Shown: positions 15,468 to 64,000 of the stretch, one piece after another
Numbering within the stretch: the first letter of the stretch is position 1
How the letters are laid out: every line of letters starts with the position of its first letter
Origin: Minisyncoccota bacterium
GTDB taxonomy: Bacteria > Patescibacteriota > Minisyncoccia > Phycocordibacterales > UBA9973
Length of the DNA: 64,000 nucleotides
Assembly: GCA_018061035.1 (NCBI GenBank)
Contig: JAGOUX010000001.1
Coordinates: 6,817 to 70,816, forward strand
Reading direction: 5' to 3'
Notes under the pieces: model-generated
The model's input: only the letters and a program-made list of their open reading frames with translations
What the model was told of the DNA's origin: nothing
Databases searched by the model: none
Program-made: the position numbers and the translations under genes

Positions 15468-16448
15468 CTACCCTAAAGTAGCCAAAAAATCATTAGTTAT
15501 AGTTTCGATCTCAGATGCAGTATTTGCTTCCATCAGCTTAACTCGGAGTTCCTTTGCCCCATCAAAATTATTAACATAAGCTTTGTAGTGCTTCTTCATG
15601 ATTGCAAAGTTCTTGTATCCACCAAGTTTCTCTTCGAATAATTTTGTATGTTCGACCATGACTCGTAATTTCTCCTCTACCGACGGTACTTTTGTAAAGG
15701 ACTGTCCTTTACAAGAAAATAGCCAGGGGTTGCCAAAGATAGCTCTACCGAGCATAACACCATCACAACCAGTATCTGCAACTTTTTTCTCAGCATCAGA
15801 GATATCAAGAGCATCGCCATTGCCGAAAATGAGAGTATCTTTCTTCATTTCATCGCGAATAGCTAAGACATCCTTCATCAAGTCCCAGTGAGCTGGAACT
15901 AGAGACATTTCTTTTCGAGTACGAAGGTGAACTGTGAGCACTGCTATATCTTCTGACAATAGTTCGCGAATCCATGTATCTATCTCATTTTTATTATATC
16001 CAATGCGAGTCTTTACCGATATTGGCAATCCTTGACCTCCTTCGATGGCAGCACGAATAACCTCGCGGGCAAGCTTGGGATCTTTCATCATCGCTGCTCC
16101 TGCGCATTGCTTCTCAATGCTTTTATCGGGACAACCCATATTAATATCAATACCATCAAAACCAAGCTCCTTGCAGAGTTTTGCAGCTTCGCGGATATTC
16201 TCAGGCTTGCCTCCAAATATCTGCGCTACAATCGGGTGCTCATTAGGGCTAAATTTTAAATCAATCAGAAGTTTTTCGCGTGCCTGAAGGTGGGCTAATC
16301 CATCAGCAGAGACAAATTCAGTCCAGAATACATCAGGCTTCCCATATTTGTTTATAATCTCTCTAAACACACAATCCGTAACATCAGCCATAGGCGCTAG
16401 CACCATTATTGGTTTATTAAGTTTTGCCCAAAATCCTAAATTGCTCAT
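15468..16448 (-). CDS. tRNA-dihydrouridine synthase
   Basis: LAPMADVTDCVFRE and DINMGCP motifs of the Dus family; carries an in-frame palindromic insert (see findings). Confidence 0.85.
   Translation of the reverse strand: MSNLGFWAKLNKPIMVLAPMADVTDCVFREIINKYGKPDVFWTEFVSADGLAHLQAREKLLIDLKFSPNEHPIVAQIFGGKPENIREAAKLCKELGFDGIDINMGCPDKSIEKQCAGAAMMKDPKLAREVIRAAIEGGQGLPISVKTRIGYNKNEIDTWIRELLSEDIAVLTVHLRTRKEMSLVPAHWDLMKDVLAIRDEMKKDTLIFGNGDALDISDAEKKVADTGCDGVMLGRAIFGNPWLFSCKGQSFTKVPSVEEKLRVMVEHTKLFEEKLGGYKNFAIMKKHYKAYVNNFDGAKELRVKLMEANTASEIETITNDFLATLG
15691..15714. repeat. 24-bp perfect palindrome TTTGTAAAGGACTGTCCTTTACAA inside the dus CDS
   Basis: Identical to 38471-38494 inside rsmI; in frame, encoding CKGQSFT. 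Confidence 0.85.
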
Positions 16449-19593: not shown

Positions 19594-19713
19594 ATGAATC
19601 CCGTTAGAAGCCGCGGTCGCATTCATTTCAAAATAAATGCTTTTACTAATATCAAAAAAATTATTACTATAAAAAAGCTTAACCGCGGTGTTACAACCGC
19701 GACCTGCTTCTAA
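19594..19713 (+). other. Upstream ORF within MITE copy 1 (39 aa, MNPVRSRGR...TATCF)
   Basis: ATG supplied by the left TSD copy, open through the element, TAA inside the right TIR 5 nt before the topA ATG. Confidence 0.45.
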
Positions 19714-19718
19714 ACGGG
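19599..19718 (+). mobile_element. MITE-like element, copy 1 (between the topA promoter and the topA start)
   Basis: TIRs CCCGTTAGAAGCCGCGGTCGC / GCGACCTGCTTCTAAACGGG; 5-bp direct repeat ATGAA at 19594-19598 and 19719-19723. Confidence 0.7.
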
Positions 19719-21935
19719 ATGAAATTATTAATCGTAGAGTCACCATCAAAAGCTAAAACTATCGAGAAATATCTCGAGGGTTCTTATACTGTGCGCGCAT
19801 CAGTTGGACATGTGCGAGATCTTCCGAAATCCAACAAAAAGGCGATCGACATCGAAGCAGGATTTCTCCCCCATTACGAAATTTCTAAAGGAAAAGAAAA
19901 AGTAGTTCACGAACTACAAGGTTTAGCTGAAAAAGCAACGGAAATAATGCTTGCGACAGACCCCGACCGTGAAGGTGAAGCCATAGCTTGGCATATTGAG
20001 ACACTTCTCCATGCAGACAAGAAAGTTAAGGCTCCGATTCATAGAGTAGCCTTTCACGAAATCACCAAAGAGGCAGTTGAAGAAGCGCTCTCACATCCCC
20101 GCAAAATAGATACTGCACTTCGAAAGGCGCAAGAAGCGCGTCGGGTACTCGATCGACTCGTAGGCTACGATCTTTCAGGAATAATTTGGAAAAAAGTTCG
20201 CTATGGATTATCTGCAGGGCGAGTTCAATCCCCAGCTCTCCGTATTATTATGGAACGTGAACGTGAGATTCGAGCTTTTGTGCCAGAAAAGTACTGGAGG
20301 CTTTTTGGAATTTTTGAAACATCTAAAAAAGATAAGCTGACACTTGAGTGTAGCGAAGAGCCTCGTGATGAAAAATTAGTAAATAAAATATTAGAAGAAG
20401 GCAAAAAGGGTTCATGGATAGTAAAGGGAGTAAAAGAGTCTGAGCAAAAGAGATCTCCTCGTGCTCCATTTACCACATCGACACTTCAGCAAACCGCGAG
20501 CTCACGATTGGGCTACTCACCTTCTCGCACTATGCAGATCGCTCAGAAGCTCTACGAAGCAGGACATATCACATATATGCGTACAGATAGTACAAACCTT
20601 GGCGCTTCTGCTCAGAGCCAAATTCTGGCATTCGTAAAAAAGCAATACGGCCCGGAATATGCTGAAGCTCACATATATAAGACTAAATCTAAGAATGCTC
20701 AAGAAGCTCACGAAGCCATCCGTCCTACACATATAGAGAAGATGCATGCCGGCACTGAGGAGCAGAGCCGTCTGTATCAACTTATTTGGGAGCGAGCTAT
20801 CTCTTCTCAGATGACCGACGCAAAACTACTCAAGACAAAAATCACCGCTGTTATCGAAGGCCATGAAGACCTCCCAGAATTCGGAGCAGTTGGCTCAAGA
20901 TTACTTTTCCCAGGATGGCTTGCAGCTGATACAGGTGCTCGAGGTGAAGATGTGGAACTACCACTTGTAAAAGCCGGCGAAAAATTAAAACTACTTGATC
21001 TCACAAGTGAAGAGAAGTTTACCGAGCCACCAGGCAGATATTCAGAGGCAGGTCTTGTGAAGGAGCTTGAGAGTAGAGGCATTGGCCGACCGTCGACCTA
21101 CGCATCTATCATGCGCACAATCGAAGATCGTGGCTATGTACGCAAGGAAGGCAAAACATTGTTCCCCACCGACACTGGTGAAGTAGTTTCAGATTTTCTC
21201 GAAGCACATTTCGCAAATTATATCTCTGATACATTTACAGCAGAAATGGAAGATGAGCTCGATGAAATCTCTCGCGGTGAACGTGAGTACGAAAAAACTT
21301 TGAAGGATTTTTATGGTCCATTCCTAAAAGAAGTTAAAGCTAAAGATAAGTTGGAAAAAGCAACCAATTTGGGAGATGCCCCAGATGGCACAAAATGTCC
21401 CAAATGTGGAAGTACGATGATTATAAAATTATCCCGAGGCGGTAAATTTTATTCTTGCTCTAAGTATCCAGACTGTGATGGTGCTCTCATGCTCGATGGT
21501 ACTGAATTAAAAGGCCCAGAAGAAACCGGCGAAATGTGTCCTACATGTGGAGACAAGAAGGGCAAATCAGGTGGAGGCAAGCTTGTTGTTCGACAGCGAC
21601 GAGACGGAGGCGGAAGTTTTATATCTTGCTCACGATATCCAAAATGCAAATTTATCAAACAAGACGAAGCGGAACTCGCTCGCAAGCGCACTGGGGTATT
21701 GTGCCCTCTGTGCAAAACCGGTGATATATCCGAACGCCGAGGCAGATTCGGAATATTCTACTCATGCTCCAACTACCCAGACTGCAAATATGCAATCAAG
21801 GCCAAGCCAACTGGAAATATTTGTAAAGAATGCGGAGCACTCATGATGGAAGGTACTAAGACAATCCCCGAGAGATGTTCAAACAAAGCATGTAAAATGC
21901 ACAATCCTCACAAAATCCCAAAAATTGAATCATAG
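19719..21935 (+). CDS. topA: DNA topoisomerase I
   Basis: TOPRIM/Topo IA core plus four C-terminal C4 zinc-ribbon repeats (CPKCG...CSKYPDC etc.). Confidence 0.9.
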   Translation: MKLLIVESPSKAKTIEKYLEGSYTVRASVGHVRDLPKSNKKAIDIEAGFLPHYEISKGKEKVVHELQGLAEKATEIMLATDPDREGEAIAWHIETLLHADKKVKAPIHRVAFHEITKEAVEEALSHPRKIDTALRKAQEARRVLDRLVGYDLSGIIWKKVRYGLSAGRVQSPALRIIMEREREIRAFVPEKYWRLFGIFETSKKDKLTLECSEEPRDEKLVNKILEEGKKGSWIVKGVKESEQKRSPRAPFTTSTLQQTASSRLGYSPSRTMQIAQKLYEAGHITYMRTDSTNLGASAQSQILAFVKKQYGPEYAEAHIYKTKSKNAQEAHEAIRPTHIEKMHAGTEEQSRLYQLIWERAISSQMTDAKLLKTKITAVIEGHEDLPEFGAVGSRLLFPGWLAADTGARGEDVELPLVKAGEKLKLLDLTSEEKFTEPPGRYSEAGLVKELESRGIGRPSTYASIMRTIEDRGYVRKEGKTLFPTDTGEVVSDFLEAHFANYISDTFTAEMEDELDEISRGEREYEKTLKDFYGPFLKEVKAKDKLEKATNLGDAPDGTKCPKCGSTMIIKLSRGGKFYSCSKYPDCDGALMLDGTELKGPEETGEMCPTCGDKKGKSGGGKLVVRQRRDGGGSFISCSRYPKCKFIKQDEAELARKRTGVLCPLCKTGDISERRGRFGIFYSCSNYPDCKYAIKAKPTGNICKECGALMMEGTKTIPERCSNKACKMHNPHKIPKIES

Positions 21936-24442: not shown

Positions 24443-24483
24443 GAAATGATTTTAACATATTAAAAAATATTTCGACAATTGAT

Positions 24484-24555
24484 CCCGTTAGAGATTATGT
24501 TAATTACTTGGGGAATAAAAGGTCAATTTTTATATATTTCTGGATCTCTAACGGG
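24484..24555. mobile_element. MITE-like element, copy 5 (short subfamily)
   Basis: Perfect 12-bp TIRs CCCGTTAGAGAT / ATCTCTAACGGG with a perfect 6-bp TSD ATTGAT at 24478-24483 and 24556-24561. Confidence 0.7.
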
Positions 24556-24604
24556 ATTGATTTTGAGTATAAATATGTGTATCATATGTGGATTAGCCCC
24601 TATT

Positions 24605-24688
24605 GCCCAGGTGGCGGAATTGGTAGACGCGATAGACTCAAAATCTATTGTTGGCAACAACATGAGAGTTCGATTCTCTCCCTGGGCA
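24605..24688 (+). tRNA. tRNA-Leu (anticodon CAA)
   Basis: Hand fold: acceptor GCCCAGG/CCUGGGC, anticodon loop CUCAAAA, long variable arm, T-arm GAGAG-UUCGAUU-CUCUC; 84 nt. Confidence 0.85.
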
Positions 24689-24783
24689 CAGAAACAGTAA
24701 ATTTATTTACTGTTGTGGAGAGATCGAAAGGATTTTCGTTGTTGAATGAAATGAAACCGAAAATCACCCGGCTAAGTAATAGC

Positions 24784-24806
24784 CGATTCTCTCCCTGGGC
24801 ACAGAG
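24784..24806 (+). repeat. Direct repeat of the tRNA-Leu 3' end (identical to 24671-24693)
   Basis: CGATTCTCTCCCTGGGCACAGA is repeated 113 bp downstream. Confidence 0.8.
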
Positions 24807-26136: not shown

Positions 26137-26143
26137 AACTACT

Positions 26144-26223
26144 CCCGTTAGAAATTCTATGATTGGAAACTTTACTAAAAGTGATATAACAATGGAAATG
26201 CGAAGCATTTCCTATTTCTAACG
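26144..26223 (+). mobile_element. MITE-like element, copy 6 (short TIR, between murA and miaA)
   Basis: TIRs CCCGTTAGAAAT / ATTTCTAACG, no clear TSD; the reading frame CCC GTT AGA ... TTC TAA is open throughout. Confidence 0.55.
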
Positions 26224-26225
26224 TG

Positions 26226-27101
26226 ATGCAAAAAGTTTTTGTTATACTCGGGCAAACAACTACCGGCAAGAGTGCTTTGGCGGTAAAATTGGCAAAGAAA
26301 ATTAACGGAGAAATTATCTCTGCTGATTCACGGCAAGTATACACAGGTCTGAATATAGGTAGCGGAAAAGTAACAAAAAAAGAAATGGCTGGTGTCCCCC
26401 ATCATTTGCTTGATGTTGTGAGCCTAAAGAAAAAATTCTCTGTTGCTGAATATCAAAAATTAGCAAATAGTGTAATCACTGAAATTATAAAGCGAGGTAA
26501 GGTACCAATTATAGTTGGCGGAACGGGGTTCTATATTGATGCTGTAACCAAAGGCATAGTCTTACCCGAAGTACCACCCAATCCTAAGCTACGCAAAGAG
26601 CTAGAGAAGAAGAGCCTGTCTCAATTGGTGACAATGCTCAAAAAGCTCGATCCCGCGCGAGTAAAAAATATTGATGTGAAAAATAAAGTACGCTTAATCC
26701 GAGCCATAGAAATATCCAAGACGCTTGGGAAGGTACCAAAAATTAAAATCATGAAACCCGCATATGAATTCGTGCAGTTAGGATTATTTCTCCCCGAGAA
26801 GAAATTGAGGTCAAAAATATCTACTCGTCTCAAATCTAGAATGACTCAAGGAATGCTTCGTGAAGCAAAGAGTTTAAATAAAAATGGTCTGTCGTGGAAG
26901 CGCATGCGAGAGCTAGGATTGGAATACAGATTTATGGCTCTTCATCTAGAAGGAAAAATTAACAAAAAAGAAATGATAGAGAAGCTAGAGAAAGAGATAT
27001 ATCAATACGCCAAACGCCAAATGACTTGGTTCAAGAGAGATCAGAGTATTATTTGGTTTGACGCTTCCAAGAAAATTAGCCTTCGTAAAATTGGTGTATA
27101 A
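26226..27101 (+). CDS. miaA: tRNA dimethylallyltransferase
   Basis: P-loop GQTTTGKSALAV and DSRQVY motif. Confidence 0.85.
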   Translation: MQKVFVILGQTTTGKSALAVKLAKKINGEIISADSRQVYTGLNIGSGKVTKKEMAGVPHHLLDVVSLKKKFSVAEYQKLANSVITEIIKRGKVPIIVGGTGFYIDAVTKGIVLPEVPPNPKLRKELEKKSLSQLVTMLKKLDPARVKNIDVKNKVRLIRAIEISKTLGKVPKIKIMKPAYEFVQLGLFLPEKKLRSKISTRLKSRMTQGMLREAKSLNKNGLSWKRMRELGLEYRFMALHLEGKINKKEMIEKLEKEIYQYAKRQMTWFKRDQSIIWFDASKKISLRKIGV

Positions 27102-27108: not shown

Positions 27109-27189
27109 ATGGATTCCGTTAGAAGCCGCGGTCGCAATTACAATCAAATAACCTTAAGTAGTCTCGGTCTGACCGCGACCTGCTTCTAA
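27109..27189 (+). other. Upstream ORF within MITE copy 2 (26 aa, MDSVRSRGR...TATCF)
   Basis: Starts at the ATG of the left TSD copy and ends at a TAA in the right TIR 4 nt before the murI ATG. Confidence 0.45.
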
Positions 27190-27192
27190 CGG
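27115..27192 (+). mobile_element. MITE-like element, copy 2 (inserted at the murI start codon)
   Basis: TIRs CCGTTAGAAGCCGCGGTCGC / GACCGCGACCTGCTTCTAACGG; 7-bp TSD GATGGAT at 27108-27114 and 27193-27199. Confidence 0.75.
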
Positions 27193-27193
27193 G

Positions 27194-27910
27194 ATGGATG
27201 CACGACCGATTGGAGTTTTTGATTCAGGTATAGGAGGACTGACAGTTCTCAAGGAACTACAAAAGGCTATGCCAAATGAGAATTTCATATACCTAGCAGA
27301 TCAGGCTCACTTACCGTATGGAAACAAAAGCAAAAAAGAACTGATAGGCATAACTAGCACTATCATGAATTACTTCCTCACAAAGGATGTGAAGCTTGTA
27401 GTTATAGCTTGCAACACTGCTACTGCAAATACCATCGATGCCCTTCGCAAGAAATATTCTCTACCCATTGTTGGTACAATTCCTGCAGTTAAGCCCGCAG
27501 CAGAAAATACAAAGACTGGAACTATCGCGGTATTATCTACACCCGCAACAGCAAAAAGTTCTGCTTTGAAGAAATTGATCAGACAGTATTGCCGAGGAAT
27601 AAAAGTGCTCAACATTCCCTGCCCCGATCTAGTTGCTCAAATAGAAAAAGGCGACCTAGATAGTACAAAAACAAAGAAACTTTTGGAAAAATACCTCAAG
27701 CCCGTAATAGATTCAAATGCTGACCATGTTGTCCTTGGATGTACCCATTACCCACTTCTCAAGAAACAGATGCAAAAAATATTAGGAAGAAAAGTAAAAA
27801 TTATAGACTCGGGAACAGCCATTGCAAAAAGAACAAAACATATTCTACAACGGGAAAATATAGAAAATAAAACTAGGGGTAAGACTATTTACCAAACTAC
27901 ACTTACTTAA
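27194..27910 (+). CDS. murI: Glutamate racemase
   Basis: VFDSGIGGLTV and GCTHYP motifs. Confidence 0.85.
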   Translation: MDARPIGVFDSGIGGLTVLKELQKAMPNENFIYLADQAHLPYGNKSKKELIGITSTIMNYFLTKDVKLVVIACNTATANTIDALRKKYSLPIVGTIPAVKPAAENTKTGTIAVLSTPATAKSSALKKLIRQYCRGIKVLNIPCPDLVAQIEKGDLDSTKTKKLLEKYLKPVIDSNADHVVLGCTHYPLLKKQMQKILGRKVKIIDSGTAIAKRTKHILQRENIENKTRGKTIYQTTLT

Positions 27911-34693: not shown

Positions 34694-35707
34694 TTACTTC
34701 TTACTTAATACTGTTTTCTTATATACGTCCAAGTGATCGAGTGCTATGCCTGTACCTTTGACAACACAAAATAATGCATCCTCTGCTAGATTTGCCTTTA
34801 CTCCAGTCTTGCGATATACGAGATCAGTAAGATTGCGGAGCTGAGATGAGCCACCAGTCATGATTATTCCGTGATCCATGATATCAGAAGCCAATTCGGG
34901 TGGAGTCTCCTGAAGTACGTCCTTAATAGCTTTAATAATTTGTTTCAATTCTCCATCAATAGCTCTAACTATTTCATTTGTACCTACCTGAGCGCTTCGA
35001 GGCAAGCCTTGTATAAAATCTCTACCTTTGATTGTTACTCTTAGTTCTTCATCGAGAAGTATTGCTGCTCCAATTTTAATTTTAACTTCTTCGGCTGTTC
35101 TATCACCAATGGCTAGGTTGAAAGTTTTTTTAATATAGTCTGCGATAGCTTGATCAATTTTATTGCCAGCACACTTTACAGAAGTAGAAGCAACGATTCC
35201 GCCAAGCGAAATCACAGCTACGTCTGTGGTGCCTCCGCCTATGTCTACTACCATATACCCTTTTGATTCATATATGGGAATTCCCGCACCGATAGCTGCC
35301 AAAATCGGCTCTTTGACGACATAAGCATTTCTAGCGCCTGCGCGAATTGCAGCTTCTACCACTGCTCGACGTTCGGTCGAAGTCACTCCAGCTGGCACAG
35401 AGACCATCACATCTGGTTTGAAAAAATTCCATTTACCCATAGCCTTGCTGATAAAATATCTGAGCATTGCTTCAGTCACTCGATAATCCGCAATGACTCC
35501 ATCCTTCATCGGACAATATGTAATAATAGATTCGGGTGTCTTGCCGATCATATCTTTCGCTTCGAAACCAATAGCTAAAATTTTATTATCTTGCTCTGAA
35601 ACTGCTACCACTGATGGTTCATTTAATACTATTCCTTTGCCGGGCATAAATACGAGCGTATTTGCAGTACCCAAATCTATTCCTAATTTCTTTGAAAAAA
35701 TACCCAT
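34694..35707 (-). CDS. mreB: Rod-shape-determining protein MreB
   Basis: Actin-fold MreB sequence (GIDLGTANT, DIGGGTTD). Confidence 0.9.
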   Translation of the reverse strand: MGIFSKKLGIDLGTANTLVFMPGKGIVLNEPSVVAVSEQDNKILAIGFEAKDMIGKTPESIITYCPMKDGVIADYRVTEAMLRYFISKAMGKWNFFKPDVMVSVPAGVTSTERRAVVEAAIRAGARNAYVVKEPILAAIGAGIPIYESKGYMVVDIGGGTTDVAVISLGGIVASTSVKCAGNKIDQAIADYIKKTFNLAIGDRTAEEVKIKIGAAILLDEELRVTIKGRDFIQGLPRSAQVGTNEIVRAIDGELKQIIKAIKDVLQETPPELASDIMDHGIIMTGGSSQLRNLTDLVYRKTGVKANLAEDALFCVVKGTGIALDHLDVYKKTVLSKK

Positions 35708-35821
35708 CCCGTTAGAAGCAGGTCACGGTTGAATAACCGTGATTTAGCTTGATTATCTTATTAAATTTTTGAAGTTTGATTATCATTTTTTCTTAATATT
35801 GTGACCACTATTTCTAACGGG
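35708..35821. mobile_element. MITE-like element, copy 3 (abutting the mreB start codon)
   Basis: TIRs CCCGTTAGAAGCAGGTCACGG / TGTGACCACTATTTCTAACGGG; perfect 6-bp TSD ACCCAT at 35702-35707 and 35822-35827. Confidence 0.7.
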
Positions 35822-35863
35822 ACCCATGAAAGTAATATAACACATATATGCTAGAATAAAAGC

Positions 35864-38112: not shown

Positions 38113-38802
38113 CTAAGACACAATTACAGTAAATTCCCCTCTTTGCTTTTCAGTATTTTTTACAAAATATTCGAGAACTTCGGCAGGAGTGCCAGTTTTA
38201 AATTCCTCATATATTTTTGTAAGTTCACGGGCAACACACACCTTCTTCTCTGGGCAAAATTTTATTAACGATTCCAAAGTTTTTAAAATTCTGTGGGGAG
38301 ATTCATAAAACACCATTGTCCGCTCTGATGATGCTATTTCTTTAAATAATGTTTCTCTACCCTTTTTGTGCGGTAAAAATCCAAGAAAAGTAAATTCATG
38401 AGTCGGAAGTCCTGAAGCCGAAAGCGCGGTGATCACAGCAGAAGCTCCAGGTATAGGCACCACCTCCACATTTGTAAAGGACTGTCCTTTACAAAATTTT
38501 TCTTTTATTTGTGAGACAAGCATGGCCCCTGGGTCAGATATGCCTGGCGTGCCTGCGTCTGAAACCAATGCCAAATCTTTACCTTCCTCAAGCATTTCAA
38601 AAATTTTATCTGTCTTGGACAACTTACTCTGCGCGTGGTAGCTCATAGTAGGCTTGCTGATAGCGTATTTATTTAAAAGATTTTTAGTTGTACGGGTGTC
38701 TTCGCAGAGTATTAGATCCACACTTTTAAGCGTTTCAATTGCCCGAAGAGTGATATCTCCCATATTGCCTATTGGTGTCGCTATTACATAAAATTTAGAC
38801 AT
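38113..38802 (-). CDS. rsmI: 16S rRNA 2'-O-methyltransferase RsmI-like (tetrapyrrole-methylase fold)
   Basis: N-terminus LYVIATPIGNMGDITLRAIETL; carries the same in-frame palindromic insert as dus. Confidence 0.8.
   Translation of the reverse strand: MSKFYVIATPIGNMGDITLRAIETLKSVDLILCEDTRTTKNLLNKYAISKPTMSYHAQSKLSKTDKIFEMLEEGKDLALVSDAGTPGISDPGAMLVSQIKEKFCKGQSFTNVEVVPIPGASAVITALSASGLPTHEFTFLGFLPHKKGRETLFKEIASSERTMVFYESPHRILKTLESLIKFCPEKKVCVARELTKIYEEFKTGTPAEVLEYFVKNTEKQRGEFTVIVS
38471..38494. repeat. Same 24-bp palindrome inside the rsmI CDS
   Basis: Identical sequence; encodes CKGQSFTN on the minus strand. Confidence 0.85.
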
Positions 38803-42276: not shown

Positions 42277-43182
42277 CTATCCTATGCTTGCCATGCCGGC
42301 GCTGATCTCTGATATTTCTCTGGTAATGTTCGACTGTCTGGCTTTGTTAAATACTAATGTAAGATCATCTATCATTTCTCCCGAAGCTTCTGATGCGTTC
42401 TTCATGGCCATCATTCTACTCGATTGCTCTGAAGCGTTTGATTCAAGGAGCATCTGGTAGATCTGCATTCGAGTGAGCTTCTCTGCAAGTGACTCAATAA
42501 GCTCATCCATATTTCCTTCAAACAAATATGGCGATTCTCCTGTCGGTGTTAAGTCAATTTTCTGATTTTCATTTTTTGCCGTATGGACTATTTCTGTCAT
42601 GTCATCCTTTGATATAGGCAAGAGTTTTCTAATTTTCGGCTTCTGAGTTAATGCTGATATAAAATCTGTATATGCCACATACACTTCCTTATATTTTTCA
42701 CTTTTAAATTCATTTATTAAAAGAGTTGATAGTGGTGCAACATCTGATAGTCGAAGCACCGCTGGTAGATCTGTGAAGGCAGCGAGTACATTTTGTTTTA
42801 CTCGGCGCATTGCCTCATCCCCCTTTTTGCCAACTGAAACAATATCTACCATCGCTGGATCTGCTTGGATCTTTAGCATACTAAGCACCTTTTTAATTAT
42901 CTGAGAATTGTATCCGCCACACAGTGAACCATTCGAAGTGATAAGCACTATAAGAGTGCGTCCTTCTGTTCGATCTACGAAGAATGGGTGGGTTATCTCT
43001 TCGAGTTTATTTGAAAGTGAAGTAAGCAATTCCCATGAATAGCCGGAATAAAGGCGAGAAGAAGTAGCCTGAGCGACAGCTCGGCGCATCTTAGAAGCAG
43101 CCACCAATTCCATTGCTTTGGTGATCTTCTTGGTGTTCTTCACACTTTTTATTCTTCTTTTTATTTCCTTTGTTCCAGCCAT
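42277..43182 (-). CDS. atpG: ATP synthase F1 gamma subunit
   Basis: Position between alpha and beta; gamma-like termini. Confidence 0.85.
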   Translation of the reverse strand: MAGTKEIKRRIKSVKNTKKITKAMELVAASKMRRAVAQATSSRLYSGYSWELLTSLSNKLEEITHPFFVDRTEGRTLIVLITSNGSLCGGYNSQIIKKVLSMLKIQADPAMVDIVSVGKKGDEAMRRVKQNVLAAFTDLPAVLRLSDVAPLSTLLINEFKSEKYKEVYVAYTDFISALTQKPKIRKLLPISKDDMTEIVHTAKNENQKIDLTPTGESPYLFEGNMDELIESLAEKLTRMQIYQMLLESNASEQSSRMMAMKNASEASGEMIDDLTLVFNKARQSNITREISEISAGMASIG

Positions 43183-43258
43183 CCCATTATAAATTTTAAT
43201 TAATAATCTTTCATTATTTTATCCTGCCCGTTCAATTTATAACGGGTCAAGTATAATT

Positions 43259-52059: not shown

Positions 52060-52281
52060 TTATTTCTTTGCTTTGGTAGCGACAAGAGCTCGGCGCTTGT
52101 TGAATCGATCTACGCGTCCTGCTGTGTCCATGATCTTTTCGTTACCTGTATAGAATGGATGGCAAGAACTGCAGATTTCCATACGGATTTCTGGCATAGT
52201 TGAGCCAACCTCAAAGACTGCTCCGCATGCGCAGATTGCCTTTGTTTTGATATCATATTTTGGGTGAATGTCTTTTTTCAT
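52060..52281 (-). CDS. rpmE: 50S ribosomal protein L31
   Basis: MKKDIHPKY...CxxC...C pattern. Confidence 0.9.
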   Translation of the reverse strand: MKKDIHPKYDIKTKAICACGAVFEVGSTMPEIRMEICSSCHPFYTGNEKIMDTAGRVDRFNKRRALVATKAKK

Positions 52282-52400
52282 TCCGTTAGAGATAGAAAAT
52301 CTTTAGATTTTCGTAATTAAATTACTCCTAATAAACAAAATAACCAATTCGATTAGTTATTATTCATGAATTCCATTAAACCAATAGATCTCTAACAGAA
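52282..52400. mobile_element. MITE-like element, copy 7 (abutting the rpmE start codon)
   Basis: TIRs TCCGTTAGAGAT / ATCTCTAACAGA (one mismatch); 5-bp TSD TTCAT at 52277-52281 and 52401-52405. Confidence 0.65.
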
Positions 52401-56934: not shown

Positions 56935-57789
56935 TTATTTTATACCGTTGAAAAGTTTCAGTCTGGCTTCCACAACAGCTTCAACTGCATCCTCAGCAGG
57001 TTGCAAAATCTTTGCAGGAGTAATTTCTTCTGTATGTTCTGATAACGACTCTTTTACAGCATCACGGAAAGCCAAGCGAAGCTCAGAGTTAATGTGCACT
57101 ACTGAAATTCCTGCCTTGATAGCATTGGTAAAGTCTTCATCCCTAAGTCCTGATCCACCATGAAGTACCAGCGGAATTTTTACCGCATCTTTTATTTTTT
57201 TTACCAGTTCCGCATCTATGTGCGGTTTGCCACTCTTGATAAGGCCATGAATACTACCGACAGACGGCGCGAACATATCTATACCAGTTTCTTCCACAAA
57301 TCTTTTTGCATCCTCGGGTGTAGTCAGTACTCCTGCGCCTTCAGGTATAGTTTCTTTGATATCTGAGCCTGACCCGATATATCCGAGTTCTGCTTCTACT
57401 AGAACCTCGCGTCCAATCATTCGCGCATATATTACGCACTCCTTAGTGACTTTTACATTCTCTTCAAAGCTAAGCTTGGCTCCATCAATAATAACCATAT
57501 CAAAGCCAGCATCAATCGAGGCCTTCACAGACTCAAAGCTTGAATGATGATCGGCATTTAGAAATATCGGATAATCATCTCTGGTGCGGATAGCCTGCAC
57601 GAGAGCAACTGCCTCCTCTCTGCCCACAAATTTCTCTTCACCCTCAGAAACTCCGATTATCACCGGCACATTTAGCTTCTTTGCCGCATTGTAGATGGCA
57701 TGAAGGGCCTCTAAATTTGAAATATTAAAATGTCCAATAGCTACACCCTTATCTTCTGCTTCTTTTATATATTCTCTGAGTGATTTCAT
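56935..57789 (-). CDS. fba: Fructose-bisphosphate aldolase class II
   Basis: KGVAIGHFNISNLE, GVSEG and HGGSG motifs. Confidence 0.9.
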   Translation of the reverse strand: MKSLREYIKEAEDKGVAIGHFNISNLEALHAIYNAAKKLNVPVIIGVSEGEEKFVGREEAVALVQAIRTRDDYPIFLNADHHSSFESVKASIDAGFDMVIIDGAKLSFEENVKVTKECVIYARMIGREVLVEAELGYIGSGSDIKETIPEGAGVLTTPEDAKRFVEETGIDMFAPSVGSIHGLIKSGKPHIDAELVKKIKDAVKIPLVLHGGSGLRDEDFTNAIKAGISVVHINSELRLAFRDAVKESLSEHTEEITPAKILQPAEDAVEAVVEARLKLFNGIK

Positions 57790-57905
57790 TCCGTTAGAGG
57801 CAGGTCGCGATCTTCGCTTCCTGTAAATTATTTATAATGTAGTTAGTAGTAATAATGTTATTAATTAATCTTAATGGTATTTTGTGACCGCGGCCTCTAA
57901 CGGAA
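57790..57905 (-). mobile_element. MITE-like element, copy 4 (abutting the fba start codon)
   Basis: TIRs CCGTTAGAGGCAGGTCGCGA / TGTGACCGCGGCCTCTAACGG; 5-bp TSD TTCAT at 57785-57789 and 57906-57910. Confidence 0.7.
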
Positions 57906-57910
57906 TTCAT
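57794..57910 (-). other. Upstream ORF within MITE copy 4 (38 aa, MNSVRGRGH...IATCL)
   Basis: ATG from the TSD copy, open through the element, TAA in the TIR, then 4 nt (CGGA), then the fba ATG. Confidence 0.45.
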
Positions 57911-63654: not shown

Positions 63655-64000
63655 ACAAGAAGATAGGGTGGCGACCACACGGTCGCCACCCTCGCGAGAA
63701 AATATATCAAGCACCGAAGAGCATATGCCCGATCGGTGCTTTCTTCGTTTTACCCTTAATGTGCTAAAATATATGGACTTGTCCCGTTATAAATTTAGCT
63801 CGCGGGATTTTGTAAATAAAGATTATTAATTAAAATTTATAATGGGATGCAAATTATTTGGATATTATTGGGAGTTATCGCAGGAGGCCTAGTAGCATAT
63901 GCTATCCTAGGAAAAAAGAGAGATGATTCAAATGGAGCCAAGGATCAATCCTTACTTCTTCTTCAGCAACAAATGGCCGAGCTCGCGAGAGCCCTTGATT

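Follow-up and report, generated by a model that had tools for sequence, protein, structure and literature searches.

We analyzed a 64,000-nucleotide stretch of contig JAGOUX010000001.1 from a Minisyncoccota bacterium (hereafter the window, numbered 1–64000). In it, a small mobile element resembling a miniature inverted-repeat transposable element (MITE) sits at the start codons of topA, murI, fba and other genes. A first-pass annotation had noticed that the copies ahead of these three genes contain a short upstream open reading frame (uORF), which ends a few nucleotides before the gene. This observation is confirmed, and the larger finding is an element spread across the candidate phyla radiation (CPR, or Patescibacteria) that occupies start codons and rebuilds them. 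With moderate confidence, we further propose that ribosomes reach the displaced start codon by a relay of short reading frames within the element. The relay is put forward from the anatomy of the element, the target duplication, the regenerated start codon, a host context free of Shine-Dalgarno (SD) motifs and a frame-specific excess of reading frames, all of them read from sequence.

Copies of the element in the window

The window contains nine copies of the element for about 60 genes (Table 1). Six of them, canonical or degenerate, are located at the starts of topA, murI, fba, mreB, rpmE and miaA; of the remaining three, one lies between the parB promoter and a tRNA-Leu gene and two are short and diverged. 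The region 19594–19721 ahead of topA reads ATGAAT, CCCGTTAGAAGCCGCGGTCGC ... ACCGCGACCTGCTTCTAAACGGG, ATGAAA, and the final base of the element is the A of the topA ATG. Pfam confirmed topA, murI (Asp/Glu racemase), class-II FBA, MreB, L31 and MiaA. Because the Pfam domains of these genes begin at residues 1–6 when they are read from the downstream ATG, this ATG is the real start.

Table 1. Element copies and associated features in the window
Feature	Position	Strand	Remarks
topA element copy	19599..19719	+	ends T...A; left arm TCCCGTTAGAAGCCGCGGTC; right arm ACCGCGACCTGCTTCTAAACGGGA with an extra A
topA uORF	19594..19713	+	39 codons, MNPVRSRGR...TTATCF*; opens at the duplicated original start codon and ends at the right-arm TAA (19711-19713), then ACGGG (5 nt), then topA ATG 19719
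Target duplication TGAA at topA	left 19595..19598, right 19720-19723	+	4 nt
topA gene	19719..21935	+	Toprim domain from residue 3, reading from the downstream ATG
murI element copy	27114..27194	+	short, 81 nt; duplication TGGA at 27110-27113 and 27195-27198
murI uORF	27109..27189	+	26 codons; TAA 27187-27189, then CGGG (4 nt), then murI ATG 27194
fba element copy	57789..57905	-	upstream ATG 57910-57908, 4 nt past the gatB stop codon
fba uORF	57794..57910	-	38 codons; TAA 57796-57794, then CGGA (4 nt), then fba ATG 57789-57787
mreB element copy	35707..35822	-	two-step relay to mreB ATG 35707
miaA degenerate copy	26143..26226	+	no duplicated ATG; internal ATG 26159 opens a 20-codon ORF
rpmE (L31) degenerate copy	52281..52400	-	uORFs from ATG 52405 end early
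Off-start copy	24483..24556	+	between parB promoter and tRNA-Leu; TTGA duplication at the flanks
Diverged short copy	43183..43250	-	arms CCCGTTATAAATT / AAATTTATAATGGG; adjoins the ATG of gene 42277..43182; TAA-N4-ATG spacing kept
Second diverged short copy	63782..63848	+	same subfamily as 43183..43250; adjoins the ATG at 63847

The three uORFs have the sequence, frames and lengths (39, 26 and 38 codons) that the first-pass annotation gave for topA, murI and fba. As it had also described, the target duplication carries an ATG (ATGAAT/ATGAAA at topA; ATGGAT/ATGGAT at murI, with the ATG inside the duplicated flank), and the TAA in the right repeat is located 5, 4 and 4 nt before the main start, respectively. 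Such a TAA, 4–5 nt 5′ of the main start, is present in every window copy sited at a gene. At murI, a −10 box (TATAAT) lies 6 nt 5′ of the upstream ATG. The annotation had put the probability of such open frames arising by chance below 1%, and our calculation bears this out: shuffling of the interiors gave probabilities of an open frame of ∼0.11, 0.41 and ∼0.06–0.11, and with a factor of 1/3 for the frame, the chance of three such copies among five is of the order of 1e-3.

The mreB copy, whose arrangement the first-pass annotation had missed, contains two uORFs in series. The first (35827–35783, 14 codons) runs from the duplicated ATG to a TGA, which overlaps the ATG of the second (35786–35712, 24 codons) as ATGA; the second uORF stops at the TAA of the repeat, 4 nt 5′ of the mreB ATG. 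In the degenerate miaA copy, the frame is open from the internal ATG at 26159 to the TAA of the repeat (26219–26221), 4 nt 5′ of the ATG at 26226, as previously annotated. The premature stops reported for the rpmE copy are also present; its last uORF stops 71 nt 5′ of the main ATG, so no relay is formed. The rpmE copy is 100% identical in five other samples, and the exact-protein look-up returned the same population only; no empty/filled polymorphism was seen in the window's own population, the rpmE element being identical in those samples. Exact-protein look-ups for topA and mreB found no record.

The two diverged copies (43183–43250 and 63782–63848), likewise new to this analysis, are 66 nt in size and 84% alike, with arms CCCGTTATAAATT / AAATTTATAATGGG. 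The right end of both, TATAATGGGATG, resembles a −10 box.

Distribution and general features of the family

Outside the window, two sets of loci were fetched, which are labelled here by L-numbers. The first set consists of matches to a 20-nt left-arm pattern among GTDB species representatives (at least 119 loci). The second, independent set was obtained with a right-arm pattern against metagenomes; it added 120 further loci, 105 of which are new non-redundant copies, bringing the family to more than 200 fetched copies. Save five chance matches in non-CPR coding regions, the left-arm matches listed all come from Patescibacteria/CPR metagenome-assembled genomes (MAGs). The host labels include Nomura-, Kaiser-, Zambryski-, Taylor-, Lloyd-, Lipton-, Wolfe-, Doudna- and Komeilibacteria, Sungiibacteriota, Paceibacterota and 'Saccharibacteria'. 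The window itself is syntenic with a Ca. Nomurabacteria MAG (L089), at ∼68% identity. One complete element at a gene start (L045) is on a 348-kb contig labelled Gammaproteobacteria (CAZSQN010000001.1), which is either a mislabelled bin or a case outside CPR.

The element is typically ∼113–115 nt in length. Lengths peak at 112–116 nt, with an additional 75–81-nt class, and range from 66 to 125 nt overall. TAA-N4-ATG is found in 85 of 111 copies and TAA-N5-ATG in 20 of 111. The arms are far better conserved than the interiors, which are mostly unalignable; where interiors are shared, this is limited to a few small clusters, whose members come either from a single MAG or from different genomes and there from different genes. 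For instance, the interior of the murI type recurs with 88% identity at lepA (L069) and tig (L014). Several copies occur per MAG, similar copies were found in single MAGs, and no transposase gene is present inside the element.

With its terminal repeats, 4-nt duplications, small size and many copies, the element is a MITE-like repeat, as the first-pass annotation had proposed. We use 'MITE' as a structural label only, because 0.94 Mb of fetched CPR DNA contained no autonomous partner, neither a kilobase-size element nor a transposase with these ends; each of the long 'pairs' of ends that could have been taken for one turned out to be two separate copies at divergent genes. A phage origin was also rejected, since the seven IMG/VR matches are chance matches within coding regions. 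In Rfam 15, no family matched the element at either gathering or E-value thresholds (best E-value 0.75), and in the window, the four tRNAs alone reached the gathering score.

Insertion at start codons and regeneration of the start codon

Taking the ends of the element as Y...R, the flanks of 136 of 213 copies match exactly over 4 nt as a direct repeat, and those of 18 more over 3 nt. TGAA is the most common duplication (78 copies), followed by TGGA (30), TGAG (13) and TGTA (7), and the base 5′ of the left repeat is A in 127 of the 136 duplicated copies. At the right junction, the last base of the element and the duplicated TG re-create a start codon; where the terminal pair is C-G in place of T-A, the regenerated start codon is GTG. 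The right junction coincides with the start codon of an ORF in 105 of 110 copies of the first set and in 105 of 105 of the second. The orientation relative to the gene is always the same.

From these features, the element inserts at an A followed by TGRA, a site that in these genomes overwhelmingly falls on the first five bases of a gene. Insertion duplicates four bases, and the last base of the element, A or G, restores ATG or GTG plus RA at the 3′ end. Because the start codon and the RA after it are regenerated in this way, the coding sequence is left untouched.

The downstream genes fall into 86 unrelated clusters, so the copies do not mark a regulon. Genes carrying the element include topA, mreB, fba, a dnaA-like gene, ssb, frr and lepA; topA is occupied in three genomes, and fba and frr in two each. 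The frr site is empty in the window, where it reads TACAAT, 6 nt and ATG, and is filled in L018 and L044. Tandem and nested insertions were found as well. In L003 (5899–6277), three different elements stand in tandem ahead of one gene, each flanked by ATGAAT. In L077 and L116, an element is inserted at the same position inside the right arm of another element with a CCTG duplication, and in L143 inside the left arm with a CGCG duplication.

Together, these observations bear on an alternative to mobility, namely that the family is a cis-regulatory leader RNA, of a riboswitch-like or protein-binding kind, passed on by vertical inheritance. As such a leader would, the family has termini conserved in many CPR lineages, keeps one orientation and recurs at topA, fba and frr. 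However, a leader would not be expected to have flanking 4-nt duplications, to insert in tandem or into its own copies, to precede 86 unrelated gene clusters or to carry similar interiors at different genes in different genomes; the interiors are unconserved and Rfam gives no match. We therefore consider a leader RNA highly improbable.

Two known types of mobile DNA were also tried as candidates and rejected. For an integron attC site, the inverse core RYYYAAC is expected 5′ and the core GTTRRRY 3′, and in the element this order is reversed on either strand, with GTTAGA first and TCTAAC last. IS200/IS605-type (PATE) insertion 3′ of TTGAT-like targets would give no target duplication and would leave subterminal hairpins; instead, the two flanks change together from copy to copy, as in a genuine duplication, and the element ends in true inverted repeats.

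In 11 copies, ACTTG takes the place of the duplicated ATGAA, often 6–8 nt past a −10 box (L002, L005, L061, L078, L173, L182, L204 (twice) and L223, and window positions 43251–43255 and 63777–63781). The right flank of these copies is still ATG plus the gene; a matching duplication (CTTG) is found in L002 only.

A few single copies show further variation. The middle element in L003 has the variant arms CCCGTAGTAGAAAA / TTTTTCACTACGGG. In L151 and L153, the left arm is interrupted at one shared point by an additional short palindrome (CTGCCTTTGCCGGCAGGCAGG or CTGCCTACCGGCAGGCAGG), which may be another tiny mobile hairpin. In L026 (2769–2894), ATGAGCGC stands on both sides of the copy in inverted rather than direct orientation, with both repeats facing outward, which points to an inversion or to recombination between two copies.

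Initiation signals in the host

Among 48 element-free window genes, 20 have a −10 box (TANNNT) 5–8 nt 5′ of the start, compared to 7.8% at random, and only 2 have an SD-like tetramer, for which the random figure is 9%. Operon-internal genes in the window begin 0–6 nt past the previous stop codon. Judged from these signals, the genome of the window appears nearly SD-free, with first genes that are leaderless and others that are coupled to the gene before them. The −10 boxes in the window often read TGnTAnAAT. Neither this mode of initiation, nor the CPR identity of the host, nor the phylum-wide spread of the element was part of the first-pass annotation.

The upstream ATGs of the element lie in the same two contexts: of 160 family-wide, 66 have a −10 box at 5–8 nt, and 58 are preceded by an ORF whose end is no more than 20 nt away. 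Owing to this context, the duplicated ATG is best taken as the native initiation site, either a leaderless 5′ end or a coupled start. Insertion of the element thus shifts the real start ∼120 nt away from the native initiation site, in a host with no visible SD mechanism.

Upstream reading frames and the proposed relay

In the mechanism that we propose, ribosomes would still initiate at the old, now upstream ATG and read into the element. They would terminate at the TAA of the right repeat and reinitiate at the regenerated ATG 4 nt on. As an alternative route, a first short ORF would stop at or beside an internal ATG whose own ORF ends at the TAA. In either case, translation of the left arm would melt the 20-bp terminal hairpin, which otherwise keeps A and U of the displaced AUG paired. 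The stop-start geometry of the element is the same as that between ordinary genes of the window.

To count relays, we required termination followed by an ATG within 4 nt, chained up to the main ATG; as controls, the interior was rotated by 1 or 2 nt, by which composition and ATG content are kept. In the first set, the relay is complete in 25 of 72 non-window copies, compared to 14.75 for the rotated controls (P = 0.0035). In the second set, it is complete in 34 of 76, compared to 9–15 for the controls (P = 5e-9). Overall, 41% of the copies have a complete chain to the main ATG, compared to ∼19% of the frame-shifted controls. ATG-ORFs that end at the TAA of the repeat are also in excess over the reverse complement, a control that carries the same terminal TAA: 38/103 versus 3/103 in the first set, with sizes of 19–26 codons, and 42/91 versus 6/88 in the second.

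The reading frame of the upstream ATG gave a related result. Combining 151 copies with an upstream ATG, 65 have it in the frame of the TAA, 50 in the third frame and 36 in the gene frame (P = 0.015); in the second set alone, the distribution is 40/22/14. The frame is free of stops from the 5′ ATG to the right arm in 31/65, 3/50 and 2/36 of these classes, respectively (Fisher's test for the TAA frame against the other two, 5e-7 and 6e-6). From these proportions, in-frame N-terminal fusions are avoided and TAA-terminated ORFs are favoured. Family-wide, neither length modulo 3 nor stop content thus follows the random expectation, the TAA frame being depleted in stops.

The simple design in the first-pass annotation, one uORF from the duplicated ATG to the TAA, is supported by this family-wide bias in frame and stops. 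As a general rule it does not stand, since the strict form is found in only ∼20% of the copies (19/76 in the second set). TAA-ending ORFs are indeed favoured, but in many copies the route is through an internal ATG or two relay steps, and about half have no complete chain. In the first set, ∼80% of the 5′ uORFs end 37–95 nt ahead of the main start. Nor is the peptide conserved: L006 and L032 differ by eight nonsynonymous and two synonymous changes. As related copies differ mostly by nonsynonymous changes, it appears from these comparisons that the act of translation, not the peptide, is selected. A conserved micropeptide was rejected on the same ground, together with the unalignable interiors.

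Several results weigh against the relay. Under the rules used, 55–60% of the copies have no complete chain, including the population-fixed rpmE copy. About 25% have no upstream ATG, and the 11 copies with ACTTG have that motif in its place. In the first set, the ATG-to-ATG distance modulo 3 is at chance (30/28/21), and stops in the uORF frame are not depleted overall. The TAA sits in the invariant palindromic terminus, so its conservation is not independent evidence for a stop function. In addition, the fixed orientation and a conserved bulge in the terminal hairpin (see below) are not accounted for by the relay model, and counts of G·U versus A·C show no clear RNA-strand signature.

Part of this evidence would equally suit a purely selfish MITE, which targets ATGRA, survives where it is harmless, namely at start codons, and contains ORFs only incidentally, either from A-rich, low-complexity interiors or by descent from a transposase gene with its stop in the right repeat. 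The baseline is high, with ∼19% 'relays' in the frame-shifted controls; the first set has no frame bias, the peptides are not conserved, and the TAA belongs to the palindrome. However, the rotated controls, with the same composition and ATG content, give only half the relays. Openness is confined to the class with the TAA in frame, in-frame fusions are rare (2/36), and shared descent cannot carry the signal through interiors that are mostly unalignable. An SD-free host would also need some route to the displaced AUG. We regard a purely selfish element as distinctly unlikely.

The terminal hairpin

The arms of the element form a terminal hairpin of 20 bp, in which 97% of the stem positions are Watson-Crick. 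In the RNAalifold consensus of 47 copies, helices of 14 bp and 6 bp are separated by a 4-nt bulge, and five pairs show compensatory changes. The bulge is ACCT; it is conserved and always located on the gene-proximal arm. The two outermost pairs of the stem take in the A and U of the main AUG. The window copies all fold into the long terminal hairpin, with z-scores of −2.8 to −6.5.

Such a structure raises the question of whether expression is rescued by the stem instead of by the uORF. A nuclease such as RNase III could cut the hairpin and leave a transcript that starts at or near the downstream AUG; alternatively, the stem could join the 5′ end to the downstream AUG, and the ribosome would shunt or hop to the identical AUGRA at the stem base. 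This would be in keeping with the covariation and folding just described, the pairing of the main AUG, the much greater conservation of the arms, the identical AUGRA on either side of the stem and the lack of a relay in over half of the copies. RNase III is retained in CPR genomes (PMC12641178). However, if the interior were skipped or excised, there would be no reason for frame-specific stop depletion and in-frame ATGs. Further, the codon after the 5′ AUG is not a stop, unlike in T4 gene 60, no ribozyme or Rfam family matches, and the right arm has no −10-like box. On balance, we find a rescue by the stem in place of the uORF rather unlikely. Beside the relay, a hairpin-based route, by processing or shunting, may act in the copies without a chain, or alongside the relay.

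Two other routes to the main start were rejected. Programmed translational bypass has matched AUGs at its disposal, but it calls for a stop directly behind the take-off codon, and the first AUG is followed by AAU, GAU or AGU, all of them sense codons. An internal promoter for a leaderless transcript would need a −10 box, and there is no TANNNT 5–8 nt before the internal ATGs and no −10-like box in the right arm.

Comparison with known systems

The Correia elements (CREE/NEMIS) of Neisseria and the MITEs ERIC, RUP and BOX measure ∼100–150 bp, end in terminal inverted repeats and duplicate a short target. Many of them are found beside genes and are co-transcribed there as long hairpins able to alter expression. 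The CPR element shares with Correia elements its size, terminal inverted repeats and short duplication. Correia elements differ in their duplication, which is TA, in having no link to start codons and in their restriction to a single genus. The CPR element targets A followed by TGRA at start codons, rebuilds the start codon and has a fixed orientation; its copies in one genome share the arms only, and the family spans the superphylum. The ends of IS1380-family elements begin with CC and their target duplications are 4–5 bp, which is compatible with the termini of the CPR element; this makes the family a possible lead, and the fetched DNA showed neither a transposase nor a full-length element bearing these ends.

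On the side of translation, the closest likeness is to termination-reinitiation, as in operon coupling and 70S scanning, where the stop codon lies 4–5 nt before the start or overlaps it (ATGA) and no SD is needed. Compared to operon coupling, the upstream cistron in the CPR element is a short, non-conserved ORF made by a mobile element at a duplicated start, sometimes in two steps. The Rickettsia palindromic elements (RPE) are palindromic repeats tolerated in essential genes through a preserved reading frame. They are translated in frame within the protein, whereas the CPR element stays outside it, with in-frame fusion avoided. Bypass inserts, such as that of T4 gene 60 and the 'byps' of Magnusiomyces mitochondria, are mobile and have identical flanking codons and a take-off hairpin. 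The CPR element is far longer and has no stop after the first AUG, and its frame-specific ORF signal argues for translation through, not over, the insert. No description of the element was found in Rfam or in the full-text literature; as far as these sources go, the novelty would lie in the combination of a MITE with translational coupling.

Other repeats in the window

Two further repeats were noticed in the window. The 3′ end of tRNA-Leu(CAA) (GATTCTCTCCCTGGGCACAGA, 24669–24691) is repeated at 24784–24806, ∼113 nt downstream, which looks like the footprint of integration at a tRNA. A 25-nt perfect palindrome, TTGTAAAGGAC-T-GTCCTTTACAA, is present at two distant sites (15690–15714 and 38472–38496) and could be a shared terminator or operator.

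Implications for CPR bacteria

The CPR make up a large share of bacterial diversity; they are almost uncultured, and their rules of gene expression are barely known. In this setting, the element family amounts to hundreds of natural 'experiments' in which the start codon of essential genes has been displaced by ∼120 nt. How these genes remain expressed bears on leaderless initiation, on reinitiation by 70S ribosomes and on what mobile DNA costs a minimal genome. There are consequences for annotation as well: in such regions, gene callers may choose the wrong ATG or call spurious peptides of 25–40 aa, and the element offers a convenient sequence marker of CPR contigs.

A wider interpretation is possible, though we hold it only tentatively: start-codon-homing hairpins, a superphylum-wide family that occupies about one gene in seven of the window and is present in many other CPR MAGs, would be tolerated and perhaps co-opted as a 5′ control module, through a relay or a stem shunt from the old to the regenerated start on leaderless or coupled mRNAs. 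If homing and such a relay or shunt hold true, the elements would both report on and modulate a largely unstudied, SD-independent system of translation initiation.

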